Origin: TPA_inf: Saccharomyces
Lineage: Eukaryota
Direction: 5' to 3'
Length of the DNA stretch: 64,000 bases
Assembly (NCBI GenBank): GCA_000146045.2
Contig: BK006943.2
Location: forward strand, 672,001 to 736,000
Within the stretch, counting starts at the first letter, position 1, and each line of letters starts with the position of its first letter. The translations under genes and the position numbers were made by a program. This document shows positions 36,811 through 49,297 of the stretch, piece by piece. The notes under the pieces are model-generated. The model had not been told where the DNA came from, searched no databases, and saw nothing but the letters and a program-made list of their open reading frames with translations.

Positions 36811-37707
36811 CTATAACAATAGAGCGGCGGCACCAGCAATAGCAGCGGCACCGAAAACACCGTTATTGAACTTGTTAGCACCGTTAGTGGTAACGTCAAT
36901 AACACGAGATGCTGACGATGTGACAGAAGTAGCTGTAGATTGAGCTTTGGAGGAGACTGGCTTAGTCACAGTTGAACAGACGTTATTTGAACAACTAGTT
37001 ATGGTAGTTTCAACAGTGGAAGCTTGAGTCTTTGTGACGGTGCTGTCAGTACCATTTTGGACCACTGGAGTGACTGAGATAGAAGATGTAGAAGAAACTG
37101 GAGCTGTGGTATTGGCAAAACTAGCAGAGCTTGCAACAGAGCTTGCAACAGAGCTTGCAACAGAACTTTCAGCAGAACTTGCAATGGTGCTTGCAGCAGA
37201 GCTAGATTCAGATGAAACAGTAGCTTGGGTGGAAGCAGCGTTTGAGCTGGTCTCTGCTGAACTTTCAGAGGAGCTAGAAGACTCAGTGGCGGCACTAGAA
37301 GCTTCTGAAGTGGAGGTGGAAGAAGCCTCTGTGGTAGAAGCTGGTACTGCAGTAGCAATACCTTCATTCGCAAGTGCTTCGGAAATAGCACCCATCAATC
37401 TAGTAGAGTACCATGGCACACCGGTGATCATTCTGGTCACTTCATCACCTGAAATACCAGTCAACATGGTGGTGAAATCGCCACCGGCAAAAACAGCCTT
37501 GGCAATTTCAGGTGGGTATGTTTCAGTCTTATGCAAAGCCTGGAAAGCGTAATATTCAGATAAATGGGCGCCAATATCAGAAACGTAAACAGCCAATTCA
37601 ATCAAATTGACCCTTTCATCATAAGGGGATAGAGTGGTGGTCACGGATGCGGCGGTTGCACTTGCCACTAATGCTGCGGCGACAGCTAATATACTAATTC
37701 TAGACAT
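36811..37707 (-). CDS. DAN1: Anaerobically induced GPI-anchored cell-wall mannoprotein (Srp1/Tip1/PAU-domain), 298 aa
   Basis: It has a signal peptide and the conserved PAU-type domain ([33 protein letters not shown]...GVPWYSTRL). The remainder is Ser/Thr/Ala-rich. The C-terminus has a GPI signal ([13 protein letters not shown]). Confidence 0.92.
37115..37200. repeat. Degenerate 12-nt tandem repeat (gagcttgcaaca, about 7 copies) inside DAN1, encoding (SVAS)n
   Basis: Three perfect units lie at 37127-37162, flanked by diverged copies. Confidence 0.85.
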
Positions 37708-37879: not shown

Positions 37880-37887
37880 CTGAACGA
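37880..37887. promoter_or_regulatory. AR1 anaerobic response element (CTGAACGA = TCGTTCAG reverse complement; Upc2/Ecm22-type) in the DAN1 promoter
   Basis: It is an exact match to the published AR1 consensus TCGTTYAG. The same motif occurs at the equivalent place upstream of DAN4. Confidence 0.6.
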
Positions 37888-38111: not shown

Positions 38112-38119
38112 CTAAACGA
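38112..38119. promoter_or_regulatory. Second AR1 match (CTAAACGA = TCGTTTAG reverse complement) ~410 bp upstream of DAN1
   Basis: It is an exact match to the TCGTTYAG consensus. Confidence 0.5.
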
Positions 38120-40254: not shown

Positions 40255-43200
40255 CTATAGCAGTAATAAAGCGACAACAGCAACGATAGCGGTACCAAAA
40301 ATGTTATCTTTATCGAAATTATAGGCACCGTTGGTATTGATACTGACAGTATAAGAAGCAGATGAATGAGCAATGGAAGTAGCCGAGGAGGCTTTTGGAA
40401 TTGGTGAGATGACTTTGCTGGTAGCGGTCGCGATTGGTGCAGTTAACATGGTACAGGTTCCACCTGAGCAGTTGGTCACAGTAGTTTGAGTGATAGACAA
40501 TCCGGTTCTGGTAAACATGCTAATCCCTGCATCGACAGTAGTCAGGGTGGTACAGGCACCCGCAGAGCAACTGACTTTAATCGCTTTGGGGATGGTCGAC
40601 TCTGCATTGTTCGATGTAGTGGCTTTGGAGTTGAAACTACTAACCGGAGACATCAGCGTGGTGCAAATACCACCCGAACAACTAGTAATAGTAGTTTCCA
40701 TAGTTAGCAACTCGGTTTTAGTAGAGGCGACATCTTCTTCATTATCTTCGCAACTAATGGTAGCGGTGGTAGTTGCTTCGCTGGTGATTGTAGTAACTGG
40801 AACAGTCAGGGTCGAGCAAACACCACCAGAGCATGTTGTTATAGTTGTTTCGACCGTGGAAGTTTCTGTAGTTGTTAATGTGTTCGCCTTAGCATTAATA
40901 GTAGTAACCGGAGACATCAGCGTGGTACAAATACCACCCGAACAACTAGTTATAGTAGTTTCCAAAGTTAGCAACTCGGTTTCAGTAGAAGTGATATCTT
41001 CTTCATTATCTTCGCAACTAATGGTAGCGGTGGTAGTGGCTTCGCTGGTGATTGTAGTAACTGGAACAGTCAGGGTCGAGCAAACACCACCAGGGCATGT
41101 TGTTATAGTTGTTTCGACCGTGGAAGTTTCTGTAGTTGTTAATGTGTTCGCCTTAGCATTAATAGTAGTAACCGGAGACATCAGCGTGGTACAAATACCA
41201 CCCGAACAACTAGTTATAGTAGTTTCAACGGTAGAAACTTGAGTTTTCGTCAAAACACTATCTTCATTAGTACAACTACTCTTACAGCTCGTGATGACAA
41301 TTTCATCTGTTGATAGGTTTGTAAATGTTGAGGTTGCATTACGAACATTTTCTATCGTGCTGAACAGACCGCTACTGATGGTGTTGGAACTTCTGGCATC
41401 ACTGCAATTACTTCTTGAGGATACTAAGAGAGGGGAACTTGATGCAAAAGATGCGACTGACGATGTAGGTTCCATAGAAAATGAAGAGACGATCGATTGG
41501 GAAACAGTGAAAGTACTTAAAGTGAAACTTGACATATTTGATGACGAAAGATATAAGGAAGAAGTCCGCTCAGCAATGAAGCTAGTGGATGTAGACGTAA
41601 TTGCAGTAGACGACTCTGGAGAGGAACTGATTTCACTGAAGGGAATATTAGGAGAAACTGAATCGGTAGAGCTAGTGACCACAGTTGAAGAAACAGCAAG
41701 TGGAGTGGAAGGCGTAGCAAAAAAGGTAGTAGATTGGGTAGAGGAGTTACCAGAGACATCAGATTTAGCAGAAACAGTGGATCTGGTAAAGAAATCAGCA
41801 GCCTTGCTCGAGGAAACAACGGCTGAAGTGAAAGTGGATGTGGCAGATAGACTTTCAGTAGAAGAAATGGATTCATCAGAAGAAGGTCCAACCAAAGAAG
41901 TGGGTTCAACTGATGAACTGATCCCGCTTGAAGTAAGTACTTCAATGGAAGAAGGAATCTCAGAAGAGGAAGTAATTACACTAGAAACTATTAGTTCACT
42001 GGAAATGGTGATTTGATTAGAGGAGATAGATTCTGCGGAAGTGGTTGCTTTACTGAAAGAGAGAGGTTCAGCAGAAGAGGTGATTTCACTGAAAGTAGAC
42101 CCGAAGGAAGAAACAGGTTCTGTCGTGGTCACTTGACTAGACCTGATAGGTTCAACAGAAGAGGTGACTTCACTTACAGTAGTAGGTTCAGCGGATGAAG
42201 TGACTTGACTAGACCTGATAGGTTCAACAGAAGAGGTGAATTCACTGACAGTAGTAGGTTCAGCGGATGAAGTGACTTGACTAGACCTGGTAGGTTCAAC
42301 AGAAGAGGTGAATTCACTGACAGTAGTAGGTTCAGCGGATGAAGTGACTTGACTAGACCTGGTAGGTTCAACAGAAGAGGTGAATTCACTGACAGTAGTA
42401 GGTTCAGCGGATGAAGTGACTTGACTAGACCTGGTAGGTTCAACAGAAGAGGTGAATTCACTGACAGTAGTAGGTTCAGCGGATGAAGTGACTTGACTAG
42501 ACCTGGTAGGTTCAACAGAAGAGGTGAATTCACTGACAGTAGTAGGTTCAGCGGATGAAGTGACTTGACTAGACCTGGTAGGTTCAACAGAAGAGGTGAC
42601 TTCACTGACAGTAGTAGGCTCAGCGGATGAAGTGACTTGGCTGGGACTACTTGAACTGATATATGTATCGCTCGTAGTAGTAGTAGTTGCAGAAGTAGTG
42701 AATGCGTTAGTTGTTGAGACACTAGAGGTTGTATGGTCAGTAGAAGCCGTAGATGTGGCAGGTGTAGTAAGACTGGCAAAAGTGGTAGAGGTTGTAGCAG
42801 TGGTAGAAATGACAGAGGATGCAGAGGCACTAGAAGTACTGAAAGTGCTTGAAGTTGTAGAGGTCGTGGGAGCGGTAGAAATGGTAGAAGTGGTAGAGGT
42901 TGTAGAAGTTGTAGAAGTTGTAGGAGCGGTAGAGGTTGTAGAAGTTGTAGGAGTGGTAGAAGTTGTAGGAGTAGTCGATGTGCTTGAAGTAGTAGGAGTA
43001 GTCGATTTGGTGGAAGTTTGAGAAGTGGTGGAGGTTGTAGAAGTTGTAGGAGTGGTAGAAGTTGTAGGAGTGGTAGAAGTTGTAGAAGTTGTAGGAGTGG
43101 TAGAAGTAGTAGAGGTTGTAGGAGTAGTCGATGTGGTAGAAGTTGTAGGAGTGGTAGAAGTAGTAGAGGTTGTAGGAGTAGTCGATGTGGTAGAAGTTGT

Positions 43201-43740
43201 AGGAGTGGTAGAAGTAGTAGAGGTTGTAGGAGTAGTCGATGTGGTAGAAGTTGTAGGAGTGGTAGAAGTAGTAGAGGTTGTAGGAGTAGTCGATGTGGTA
43301 GAAGTAGTAGAAGTGATAGTGGTGGTAGGAGTAGTCGAAGTACTAGATTTTGTAGTCGTTGTAGAAGTAGAGGTTGGGATAGCCGTGTAAATACCATCCT
43401 TTGAAAGCGCTGAAGAGATAGCCGGCTTTAATCTGGTAGAGTACCACGGAACACCAGTGATCATTCTAGTTACTTCATCACCCGAAATACCGGTCAATCG
43501 AGTAGTGAAATCACCGTAGTCAAAAACGGCTGCTGCGATTTCCGAAGGATATGTTTCAGTCTTATGGTGATTCCGGAAAGAGTAGTACTGAAATATGTGG
43601 GCTCTGATGTCAGAAACATAAACAGCCAATTCAATAAGGTTGACTCTTTCATCGTAAGGAGATAAAGTAGTGGTCGCTGTAATAGCAGCCGCACTAGTAG
43701 CTAAGGCTACAATTCCTGCTACGATGCTTATATTAACCAT
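40255..43740 (-). CDS. DAN4: Large anaerobically induced Ser/Thr-rich GPI cell-wall mannoprotein, 1161 aa, containing three internal tandem-repeat arrays
   Basis: The N-terminal 107 aa are paralogous to DAN1, and the nucleotide similarity between 43419-43683 and 37383-37650 is visible. It is about 50% Ser/Thr. The C-terminus has a GPI signal ([13 protein letters not shown]). Confidence 0.92.
40630..41235. repeat. 264-nt (88-aa) tandem repeat, 2.2 copies, in the Cys-containing C-terminal region of DAN4
   Basis: The string gagacatcagcgtggt recurs at 40647, 40911 and 41175, an exact 264-nt spacing. The unit encodes [44 protein letters not shown](P/S)[32 protein letters not shown]. Confidence 0.9.
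42063..42640. repeat. 72-nt (24-aa) tandem repeat, about 8 copies, in DAN4, encoding [24 protein letters not shown]
   Basis: The unit gtagtaggttcagcggatgaagtgacttgactagacctggtaggttcaacagaagaggtgaattcactgaca is counted at 72 nt and repeats nearly perfectly. Confidence 0.92.
42850..43370. repeat. 27-nt (9-aa) tandem repeat, about 17-19 copies, in DAN4, encoding (TTSTTSTTP)n
   Basis: It alternates ggtagaagttgtaggagt and ggtagaagtagtagaggttgtaggagtagtcgatgt, and the protein shows [11 protein letters not shown] repeated. Confidence 0.9.
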
Positions 43741-43928: not shown

Positions 43929-43936
43929 CTGAACGA
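43929..43936. promoter_or_regulatory. AR1 element (CTGAACGA) in the DAN4 promoter, in the same context as the DAN1 copy (ttcCTGAACGAtg)
   Basis: It is an exact match to TCGTTYAG. The flanks are shared with 37877-37889. Confidence 0.6.
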
Positions 43937-47665: not shown

Positions 47666-49297
47666 ATGTCAGCGGATGCTAGTACAAATTCGAATGCTTC
47701 CCTAGACGAAAAAAATTTAAACATCACTTCAGAAGCTGAAATCAAGAATGAAGACGTAACCGCGGAGCCAGTTCTAAGCACGGTACTATCACCCAACGGT
47801 AAAATTGTCTACATCAGTGACAAGGTTGATGAGGCCATGAAGTTGGCTGAAGAAGCCAAAGAAATCGAAGTGACACCAGAAGAAGATAGAAAACTTCGTT
47901 GGAAGATCGACTATTGTATGTTTCCTTTGATGTGTATATTGTATGCTGTTCAATTTATGGACAAGATTTCCACTAGTTCAGCGGCGGTCATGGGATTAAG
48001 AACTGACTTGAAAATGCATGGTGACCAGTATTCATGGGTTACTTCCGCCTTTTATTTCGGCTATCTATTTATGAACCTAGGCCCGGTACAGTTCATTTTC
48101 CAAAGGACCAGTCACATGTCAAAAATGCTTGCGGTTTTTATTGTCATATGGGGAATGTTATTAGCTTTACATGCAGCTCCAACAGTTAAGTATCCTTCTT
48201 TCATTGTTTTGAGAGTACTTTTAGGTTGCGCAGAAAGTGTTGTCACACCTTGCTTTACCATTATCACTGCTCAATACTGGAAGACAGAGGAACAATTCAC
48301 AAGAGTATCAATTTGGTTTGGTATGAACGGTCTTGGCTCCATCCTGATCAACGCAATTGCGTACGGTGTTTACATTCACCAGGATTCTTATGCTATTAAA
48401 GGCTGGAGAACCTTATTTGTCATTACTGGTGTGATAACAATCTTCATTGGTATCTTGATATTCCTGTGGATCCCTGACGATCCATCAAAAGCAAGGTTTT
48501 TATCTAAAAGAGAGAAATTAATGGTTGTCCAAAGAATTAGGTCTAACCAACAAGGGTTCGGTAATCACGAGATCAAAAAATACCAAATTATAGAGGCGTT
48601 GAAGGATGTTAGGACGTGGTTATATTTCCTCTTTACTGTGAGCTCTAATATTCCTAATGGTGGTATTTCAAGTTTTATGAGTATTCTATTGAATAGTGAT
48701 TTTGGATATTCATCAAAGGAAACCCTATTAATGGGTTTACCTACAGGTGCTGTTGAATTGGTAGGTTGTCCACTTTTTGGTATTCTAGCAGTTTATGCAG
48801 CCAATAAGAAGATACCATTTTGGAAATATAAGTTGAGTTGGGCTATTTTTGCAGCTGTCTTAGCATTGATTGCTAGCTGCATGTTAGGGTTTGCAACAAA
48901 CTCCAAAAAAGCAAGACTGGCTGGTGCTTACCTGTGGTACATCTCGCCCGTCTCATTTATTTGCGTACTTTCCAATATCAGTGCGAATTCCTCGGGATAT
49001 AGTAAAAAATGGACTGTATCTTCAATAAACTTAGTAGCATATGCTGCAGCTAACTTGGCAGGACCACAAACCTTTATTGCTAAGCAGGCTCCTAAATATC
49101 ATGGCGCTAAGGTCGCTATGGTCGTATGTTATGCTGTTATGATCGTGCTTCTATCTATACTGCTCATCGTCAATTTAAGGGAAAACAAGAGACGTGATAA
49201 GATAGCTGCCGAGAGAGGGTTCCCTGAAGAAACAGAGAATTTAGAGTTTTCTGATTTGACTGATTTTGAAAATCCAAATTTCAGATACACTTTATGA
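47666..49297 (+). CDS. DAL5: Allantoate/ureidosuccinate permease (MFS, Dal5 family), 543 aa
   Basis: 543 aa and 12 TM. The name comes from recognising the protein, its length and its position. Confidence 0.9.
   Translation: MSADASTNSNASLDEKNLNITSEAEIKNEDVTAEPVLSTVLSPNGKIVYISDKVDEAMKLAEEAKEIEVTPEEDRKLRWKIDYCMFPLMCILYAVQFMDKISTSSAAVMGLRTDLKMHGDQYSWVTSAFYFGYLFMNLGPVQFIFQRTSHMSKMLAVFIVIWGMLLALHAAPTVKYPSFIVLRVLLGCAESVVTPCFTIITAQYWKTEEQFTRVSIWFGMNGLGSILINAIAYGVYIHQDSYAIKGWRTLFVITGVITIFIGILIFLWIPDDPSKARFLSKREKLMVVQRIRSNQQGFGNHEIKKYQIIEALKDVRTWLYFLFTVSSNIPNGGISSFMSILLNSDFGYSSKETLLMGLPTGAVELVGCPLFGILAVYAANKKIPFWKYKLSWAIFAAVLALIASCMLGFATNSKKARLAGAYLWYISPVSFICVLSNISANSSGYSKKWTVSSINLVAYAAANLAGPQTFIAKQAPKYHGAKVAMVVCYAVMIVLLSILLIVNLRENKRRDKIAAERGFPEETENLEFSDLTDFENPNFRYTL

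Follow-up and report, generated by a model that had tools for sequence, protein, structure and literature searches.

Three in-frame coding minisatellites account for length polymorphism of DAN4 in Saccharomyces cerevisiae

Introduction

Intragenic repeats in yeast cell-wall genes are said to expand and contract and to generate functional variability, an observation reportedly made by Verstrepen et al. in Nat Genet in 2005. Those of DAN4 (YJR151C) in Saccharomyces cerevisiae already serve as tools: the minisatellites of this gene were reportedly described as strain-typing markers by Marinangeli et al. (2004 FEMS Yeast Res), and wine yeasts have been typed by DAN4 repeat length since then. Thierry et al. 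2008 catalogued YJR151c as '30x18; 7x72' (PMC2566889), and Ribeyre et al. 2009 used the array of 30 18-bp units in instability assays (PMC2673046). Strains are still typed by the DAN4 minisatellites. The present analysis concerns DAN4 in a stretch of 64,000 nucleotides (nt) of S. cerevisiae DNA (GenBank contig BK006943.2, positions 672,001 to 736,000 of the forward strand), hereafter the window, to which all coordinates refer. DAN4 is read here as a gene with three coding minisatellites that change by whole in-frame units, faster than single-nucleotide polymorphisms (SNPs) accumulate; we put the probability of this reading at about 0.93. That the repeats are polymorphic is already known, and the observation is correct and ordinary. 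The small additions are the nesting of the arrays, a 264-nt repeat in a series of one, two and three copies with reciprocal chimeras, repeat changes on SNP-free haplotypes, and frame-breaking alleles.

Three arrays in one reading frame

The open reading frame (ORF) on the reverse strand at 40255-43740 is DAN4, because it carries the Pfam domain SRP1_TIP1, its neighbours stand in the expected gene order, and the published entry '30x18; 7x72' for YJR151c describes it. Its repeats and the segment between them are as follows, with protein positions in amino acids (aa).

40255..43740, (-) strand: DAN4 coding sequence (CDS), 1161 codons and a TAG stop; from the ORF list, Pfam SRP1_TIP1 and synteny
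42843..43347, (-) strand: Thr/Ser(/Pro) minisatellite, base unit 9 nt (TTS/TTP), with higher-order periods of 18, 27 and 54 nt
42133..42636, (-) strand: 72-nt minisatellite, 7 units, aa 369-536; from Tandem Repeats Finder and an in-register listing
41245..42132, (-) strand: Ser-rich middle, not arrayed, with degenerate TSSxEP-like motifs and constant length among alleles
40641..41226, (-) strand: 264-nt repeat, 2.2 copies (586 bp), 88-aa units, aa 833-1008 and a partial third copy
40453..41286, (-) strand: whole Cys-module region, aa 819-1096, eight modules, seven of them C-x4-C and one C-x3-C

The evidence for the arrays comes from Tandem Repeats Finder (TRF) run on the sequence, a lag scan of the CDS and codon shuffles inside each array. 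TRF reports three non-overlapping arrays inside the ORF. The 264-nt array (40641-41226) has 2.2 copies with 97% matches and a score of 1109, and the 72-nt array (42131-42639) has 7.1 copies with 98% matches. The Thr/Ser array (42843-43347) is returned at a period of 18 (28.1 copies, 73% matches), 27 (17.8 copies, 74%, with 4% indels) and 54 (8.6 copies, 84%). In the lag scan, off-diagonal signal appears solely at 72, 264, 54 and 27 nt and at their multiples. Set against codon shuffles, these signals have z-scores of 26.9 at lag 72, 24.7 at lag 264, 8.5-11.9 at lag 27 and 13.2-13.7 at lag 54, and no shuffle reaches an observed identity; the periodicities of DAN4 therefore far exceed a composition effect. 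All unit lengths (9/18/27/54, 72 and 264 nt) are multiples of three, and the ORF is open throughout.

An initial annotation of the window had described three separate in-frame arrays, with periods divisible by three that preserve the frame, each encoding a different module, and had expected their periodicity to be visible in a self dot-plot. TRF, the lag scan and the in-register listings agree on the three arrays; the off-diagonal periodicity is seen in the lag scan, the frame stays open through all of them, and the modules are indeed distinct: TTSTTSTTP repeated nine times, a 24-aa unit repeated seven times, and an 88-aa unit with 5 Cys. In each case the array is a young, homogenised centre within a repeat that is older and degenerate.

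GC skew on the coding strand is -0.77 in the Thr/Ser array, -0.31 in the 72-nt array and -0.11 in the 264-nt array. Strongly negative coding-strand skew has been noted for S. cerevisiae minisatellites (PMC2566889). No other tandem repeat scoring at least 80 was found in the 64-kb window, except a 12/24-nt array in the neighbouring DAN1-like gene.

Length polymorphism among natural alleles

Twenty-one natural alleles were compared, namely that of the window and those of 20 other natural S. cerevisiae assemblies. Loci were fetched through exact copies of their neighbours, ten via DAL5 and ten via DAN1; one further locus was fetched via a C-terminal fragment of the gene, and a short contig, L022, via an N-terminal fragment. 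Segments were measured between six unique 30-nt anchors.

Among the 21 alleles there are 20 lengths, the shortest 2865 nt and the longest 3843 nt. This result, together with the minisatellite typing literature, confirms the expectation that DAN4 length is polymorphic between strains. The 20 alleles tabulated show 19 distinct combinations of the three array lengths, and the three arrays therefore vary independently. The non-repeat segments are by comparison fixed: the N-terminal one measures 336 nt, the middle one 780 nt (anchor to anchor, aa 540-800, in 20 of 21 alleles) and the tail 342 nt. The exceptions are a 1-nt deletion in L002 and L003 and an additional 18 nt in L006, whose middle segment measures 798 nt. 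Length variation is thus confined to the three arrays, apart from this one insertion and a few frame-breaking lesions.

The tempo of change is apparent from alleles that have hardly diverged otherwise. In seven alleles the non-repeat CDS, about 1.5 kb long, carries only 0-1 substitutions, yet every one of the three arrays varies among them: their Thr/Ser segments span 411-780 nt, the 72-nt unit occurs five to nine times, and the 264-nt unit once or twice. L007 is identical to the window across the gene save for one 54-nt insertion. Repeat changes therefore outpace point substitutions.

Lesions that break the frame were also encountered. A natural 1-nt deletion, TTTTTGACTAC to TTTTTACTAC, near window position 43521 (CDS nt ~219), truncates DAN4 at aa 81. 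This frameshift is present in L002, L003 and L022, that is, in a record of the CP005xxx series, a gap-free chromosome-scale record and a metagenome contig, and the resulting 81-aa protein (P0031) is represented by 16 member sequences. In this subset of strains DAN4 is a pseudogene, and the arrays still vary within the frameshift lineage. The locus L021:7335-10447 has a 76-nt deletion in the Cys-module region, where the gene is called as two products of 887 and 148 aa. L010 has one extra nucleotide in a T-run of the 264-nt region, which may be a homopolymer sequencing error.

One further record is engineered and was left out of the natural alleles. L017 (GCA_033956085.1, CP135956.1; locus 1-20897) is a synthetic Sc2.0-type chromosome with eight loxPsym sites. 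Its DAN4 CDS (L017:3934-7419) is recoded to 68% nucleotide identity, the stop is changed from TAG to TAA, and the repeats are gone at the DNA level. The encoded protein retains 1161 aa and the repeat numbers of the window, from which it differs by S234R and S632R only. Sc2.0 designs derive from S288C; if this one does, the window carries the S288C-type DAN4 allele. Recoding in L017 extends to the non-repeat N-terminus, which resembles the error termed 'pervasive recoding' that has been reported at CTR1 of synXVI.

The Thr/Ser array

The Thr/Ser array has a regular core at 43066-43308 (aa 145-225), in which TTSTTSTTP is read nine times, equivalent to 4.5 copies of a 54-nt unit. Two synonymous 27-mers, ACAACTTCTACCACATCGACTACTCCT and ACAACCTCTACTACTTCTACCACTCCT, alternate in this core exactly four times, and identity rises from 0.82 at lag 27 to 0.97 at lag 54. 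In the window allele, 27 nt is therefore the period of the peptide and 54 nt the duplicated unit of the DNA. Among the alleles the segment between anchors measures 411-1176 nt (726 nt in the window). Apart from one separate 3-nt indel, lengths differ by multiples of 9 nt and do not follow steps of 27 or 54, and other alleles carry mosaics of TTS and TTP instead of the strict TTSTTSTTP order. It follows that the 27/54-nt regularity belongs to the S288C-type allele and not to the gene. What recombines in this array is a unit of 9/18/54 nt, not one of 27 nt. The 27-nt period proposed in the initial annotation thus holds for the peptide; as a DNA unit it gives way to 54 nt in the window and to 9-nt steps across strains. 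The encoded segment would form an O-glycosylated, presumably O-mannosylated, stalk. In yeast wall proteins, Ser/Thr repeats are regarded as sites of O-glycosylation (PMC2566889).

The 72-nt array and the Ser-rich middle

Each 72-nt unit encodes 24 aa, the second half of which reads [F/V]TSSVEP[T/I]RSSQ. The unit is itself an old, diverged doubling of a 36-nt (12-aa) half-unit, with an identity of 0.665 at lag 36 (z=15), and degenerate TSSxEP-like motifs extend downstream of the array. The number of copies among the alleles is 2, 3, 4, 4.5 (in L004), 5, 6, 7, 8 or 9, with seven in the window. When variant units are given letters, the window reads abbbbcd, and other alleles read abbbbbbcd, abbcd, nbbnbbcd and nbbncd. 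Interior, identical b units are gained and lost while the end units (a or n on one side, c and d on the other) are retained.

The 264-nt array and its Cys modules

In the 88-aa unit of the third array, two related C-x4-C modules, 37 and 51 aa long, are accompanied by a fifth Cys. Modules were mapped with a regular expression for Cys pairs and then aligned. Both Cys are invariant in the alignment, which gives a 28-residue consensus. The 264-nt array covers the five best-conserved modules and is flanked by more diverged copies. DAN1 (36811-37707) carries one such module just before its GPI signal, where DAN4 has about eight, and a DAN1-like protein from another yeast (P0061) has two; on this comparison the module seems to characterise the DAN1/DAN4 subfamily. 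It is not represented in Pfam, as judged by a scan of DAN4. A HMMER search with aa 805-1137 against 1.84 billion representatives returned five matches, four of them DAN4- or DAN1-like and one an unrelated Ala/His-rich protein. With these five matches only, the module is, so far as sequence similarity can tell, restricted to DAN4/DAN1 relatives.

Alleles have one, two or three full copies of the 264-nt unit, the window two, and the array reaches at most 3.2 copies (~850 bp), in L004, L009, L014 and L019. Since each unit contributes 5 Cys, the protein total is 14, 19 or 24 and its parity changes with copy number. The two units of the window, U1 and U2, differ at 17 diagnostic sites, by which the products of rearrangement can be read. 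The one-copy alleles (L005, L013 and L016) are chimeras that change from U1 to U2, each at a different breakpoint, and in the three-copy allele L019 the middle unit is a U2-then-U1 chimera. The two types of chimera correspond to the reciprocal products that unequal exchange between misaligned units predicts.

Mechanism and alternative explanations

The proposed mechanism is simple. Near-identical DNA copies would mispair, so that whole units are added or removed; this could happen through slippage in replication, through unequal exchange between sister chromatids or alleles, or when breaks are repaired by annealing. Unit lengths divisible by three would let the reading frame survive mechanically. 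The three arrays would change independently and outpace point substitutions, with proteins of about 950-1280 aa as the outcome, differing in the length of the presumed O-mannosylated stalk and in Cys modules (14, 19 or 24 Cys). The allele patterns of the 72-nt and 264-nt arrays would fit either unequal exchange or slippage. In published assays the 18-bp array was rearranged in 3/52 rad27-delta and 0/192 pif1-delta colonies (PMC2673046), and the rad27-delta rearrangements therefore point to replication-linked instability.

Two alternatives would remove the phenomenon itself. The Thr/Ser periodicity might be a mere by-product of extreme amino-acid and codon bias, with no true tandem duplication: the block is of low complexity, and its codon-shuffled versions show an identity of 0.60-0.65 at any lag divisible by 3. 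The observed identity of 0.95-0.97 at lag 54 nevertheless lies well above the shuffle maximum of 0.73 (z=13), and lag 27 also stands out (z=8.5-11.9). Neither the exact four-fold alternation of two synonymous 27-mers nor a difference of exactly one 54-nt block between L007 and the window is what codon bias would produce. The shuffles refute this account, and practically no credence is left to it. Alternatively, the strain differences could be mainly artefacts of assembly, in which near-identical units are collapsed or misjoined. Some records do invite the suspicion. The one-copy 264-nt state is confined to CP005xxx records (3/8, against 0/13 of the others including the window; Fisher p ~0.04, calculated by hand), which we take to be 100-genomes assemblies (101-bp paired reads, ABySS), and collapse can mimic contraction. 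Two of the three, L005 and L016, carry no SNP against the window outside the repeats and still have two or three shortened arrays. Gaps of 100 N occur in two CP005 loci, and L022, a MEGAHIT k127 short-read contig, breaks off within the regular Thr/Ser core, at window position 43204. Gap-free chromosome-scale records (GCA_0299/GCA_9473; presumably Nanopore ScRAP assemblies) nonetheless have Thr/Ser segments of 411-1176 nt, two to nine copies of the 72-nt unit and two or three of the 264-nt unit. The five-copy map abbcd is common to a CP005 record and a gap-free chromosome-scale assembly, and size variation of DAN4 has been demonstrated independently by polymerase chain reaction and Southern blotting (PMC2673046 among others). 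Artefact as the main source of the differences is accordingly very improbable. The one-copy alleles may still be products of collapse. Taken as a whole, the polymorphism stands without them; the gap-free records span the full Thr/Ser and 72-nt ranges.

A third alternative accepts the variation and differs on its cause: by analogy with FLO1, copy number would be kept by selection as a tuning device and would not be a neutral by-product. Repeat number in FLO1 sets adhesion strength (PMC2566889), most DAN4 alleles stay in frame, and each 264-nt unit shifts the Cys count by five, changing number and parity (14/19/24), which could alter disulfide cross-linking. The in-frame state, however, follows mechanically from unit lengths divisible by three, and the arrays of the frameshifted L002 and L003 still differ from other alleles by multiples of 3. 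An allele truncated at aa 81 persists in at least three independent records, and DAN1 and DAN4 are dispensable for anaerobic growth while TIR1 and TIR3 are present (PMC9551191). Selective tuning would thus be an unlikely explanation. A separate reading, to which we give still less weight, concerns the 264-nt array, the least documented of the three: if its Cys form intra- or intermolecular disulfides in the wall, copy-number change would toggle a free thiol and might affect how DAN4 is covalently cross-linked or retained there under anaerobiosis. If true, 264-nt copy number would be a repeat-driven switch of wall chemistry, beyond stalk length alone. We know of no phenotype that depends on DAN4 repeat number.

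In-frame change by whole units, at a pace beyond that of SNPs, is therefore preferred. Three considerations count against it, in addition to the confinement of the one-copy state described above. The frame-breaking lesions, of three kinds (L002/L003/L022, L010 and L021), mean that preservation of the frame is not absolute, and constraint on DAN4 may be weak. The mechanism is one that we infer from allele patterns, not from observed events. Which molecular route acts (slippage or exchange), whether the stalk is O-glycosylated and the protein GPI-anchored, and what phenotype might follow are likewise matters of inference. Finally, a single-sequence AlphaFold model of the Cys region is uninformative, with a predicted local distance difference test score (pLDDT) of 33.9.

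The initial annotation had also warned that short-read assemblies are prone to collapse the gene. A risk of collapse or breakage is plausible, and the instances in its favour, namely the contig end in L022 and a one-copy state seen only in CP005xxx records, are anecdotal. In practice, DAN4 is a hypervariable locus, useful as a strain marker, and short-read assemblies or variant calls across the locus should not be trusted; comparisons of gene length or of 'presence/absence' at DAN4 need long reads.

The DAN4 product and its chromosomal setting

Further features of the gene and its surroundings are listed here.

43684..43740, (-) strand: probable N-terminal signal peptide, aa 1-19; hydrophobic, mean Kyte-Doolittle 2.04 over aa 1-20
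43393..43668, (-) strand: SRP1/TIP1 (seripauperin/TIP1) domain, aa 25-116; PF00660, E=4.7e-23, 81.5 bits against a cut-off of 25
40258..40332, (-) strand: probable GPI-attachment signal, aa 1137-1161; last 15 aa hydrophobic, mean Kyte-Doolittle 2.93
43929..43936, (-) strand: AR1-like motif TCGTTCAG, ~190 nt upstream of the DAN4 ATG; from a pattern search
36811-37707, (-) strand, the same as DAN4: DAN1-like gene, 298 aa, adjoining DAN4
47666-49297: MFS (DAL5-like) transporter gene, 543 aa, on the other flank of DAN4

SRP1_TIP1 is the single Pfam domain in DAN4; the scan returned nothing beyond it. The N-terminal domain is 68-82% identical to PAU proteins, and a similarity search with the N-terminal 126 aa finds only PAU/seripauperin proteins and one 81-aa fragment. 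Ser and Thr make up 49% of the 1161 aa. The hydrophobic C-terminus is preceded by a polar stretch with small residues, and the C-terminal tail is similar to that of DAN1. Judged from these features, the product is probably a secreted Ser/Thr-rich cell-wall mannoprotein of the DAN/TIR (Srp1/Tip1) family, anchored by glycosylphosphatidylinositol (GPI). The family is described as GPI-anchored and is set apart from the PAU proteins by a Ser/Thr-rich region; the adjacency of DAN1 and DAN4 and the anaerobic induction of DAN/TIR genes are reported in the same account (PMC9551191). DAN4 has both the N-terminal SRP1/TIP1 domain and the Ser/Thr-rich region of that family, and it lies beside DAN1 and close to a chromosome end, as expected of the DAN1 subfamily. 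Exact copies of the DAN1-like and DAL5-like neighbours occur in identical gene order in chromosome-scale S. cerevisiae records, where the matching DAN4 loci stand 20-60 kb from the ends of records ~0.7-0.83 Mb long. No full-length DAN4 protein was retrieved from a 15-billion-protein collection, by similarity or by exact look-up of the window allele and seven others; the contig index nonetheless has gene calls of 954-1280 aa there.

The pattern TCGTTYAG, the AR1 anaerobic-response consensus, has 6 matches in the window, compared with 3.1 expected. Three of these lie in sense orientation within ~0.4 kb upstream of DAN1 (37880-37887 and 38112-38119) or DAN4 (43929-43936), all on the (-) strand. 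As candidate anaerobic-response elements they are only suggestive.

The array in the DAN1-like gene, with periods of 12/24 nt, is at 37123-37203 on the (-) strand. Gene calls in other strains give DAN1 products of 294, 298 or 302 aa. These lengths suggest steps of a single 12-nt unit, and DAN1 may also be length-polymorphic. On the (+) strand, ORFs at 40490-41242, 41291-42016, 42596-43021 and 43018-43404 (121-250 aa) run antisense inside the DAN4 repeats and encode repetitive strings rich in Val/Glu or in Arg/Ser/Cys. They were not counted as genes, being most likely low-complexity read-through of the repeats and by-products of composition.

Comparison with known systems

Resemblance to the mating adhesins Aga1p and Fig2p, whose C-x4-C domains Huang et al. 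reportedly described in 2009, is at the level of the motif only: repeated Cys-x4-Cys in Thr/Ser-rich GPI wall proteins. None of the five HMMER matches among the 1.84 billion representatives has the expected length of Aga1p or Fig2p, and no WCPL motif was found on reading the DAN4 sequence. Homology of the Cys modules with the Aga1p/Fig2p domains was dropped after that search.

The 264-nt repeat invites comparison with the megasatellites of Candida glabrata (PMC2566889). Both have units that are multiples of three and reside in wall-protein genes, and both have a long coding motif, of 126-429 bp there and 264 bp here, Thr/Ser/Val-rich. The megasatellites comprise 3-32 copies and extend to 9.6 kb, whereas the DAN4 repeat has 1-3 copies and stays below 1 kb; the window array thus falls within the megasatellite range of motif size and short of three copies and of kilobase size. 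The DAN4 motif also has Cys pairs, and no sequence relation to SFFIT or SHITT was detected.

Relative to the published DAN4 minisatellites, the gene and two of the arrays are the same. The TRF values here are 18 nt x28.1 and 72 nt x7.1, and the Thr/Ser array, described there as 18 nt x30 (PMC2566889; PMC2673046), is described here in units of 27/54 nt. The 264-nt repeat is not listed in those tables (PMC2566889, PMC2673046), probably because the reference has only 2.2 copies. Genome engineers have met the same repeats. Sc2.0 recodes repeat-containing genes with RepeatSmasher, and from the recoding of L017 it follows that those of DAN4 are already recognised as a problem for synthesis and assembly. 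The finding accordingly opens no new question, and its practical points are familiar to yeast geneticists. Its value is as an illustration: coding minisatellites change faster than SNPs, and the reciprocal products of unequal exchange can be read from public assemblies.

DAN4 finally takes its place beside FLO1, FLO11, HKR1 and TIR1, with which it shares in-frame Ser/Thr-rich repeats in a GPI or cell-wall protein, copy numbers that probably change by recombination or slippage, and alleles that differ in length. It differs from FLO1 in that repeat number there has a demonstrated adhesion phenotype, and the Pfam scan finds no PA14-type lectin domain in DAN4. With head-to-tail units inside an ORF, each a multiple of three, copy-number polymorphism among isolates and a negative GC skew, its arrays have the properties of coding minisatellites.

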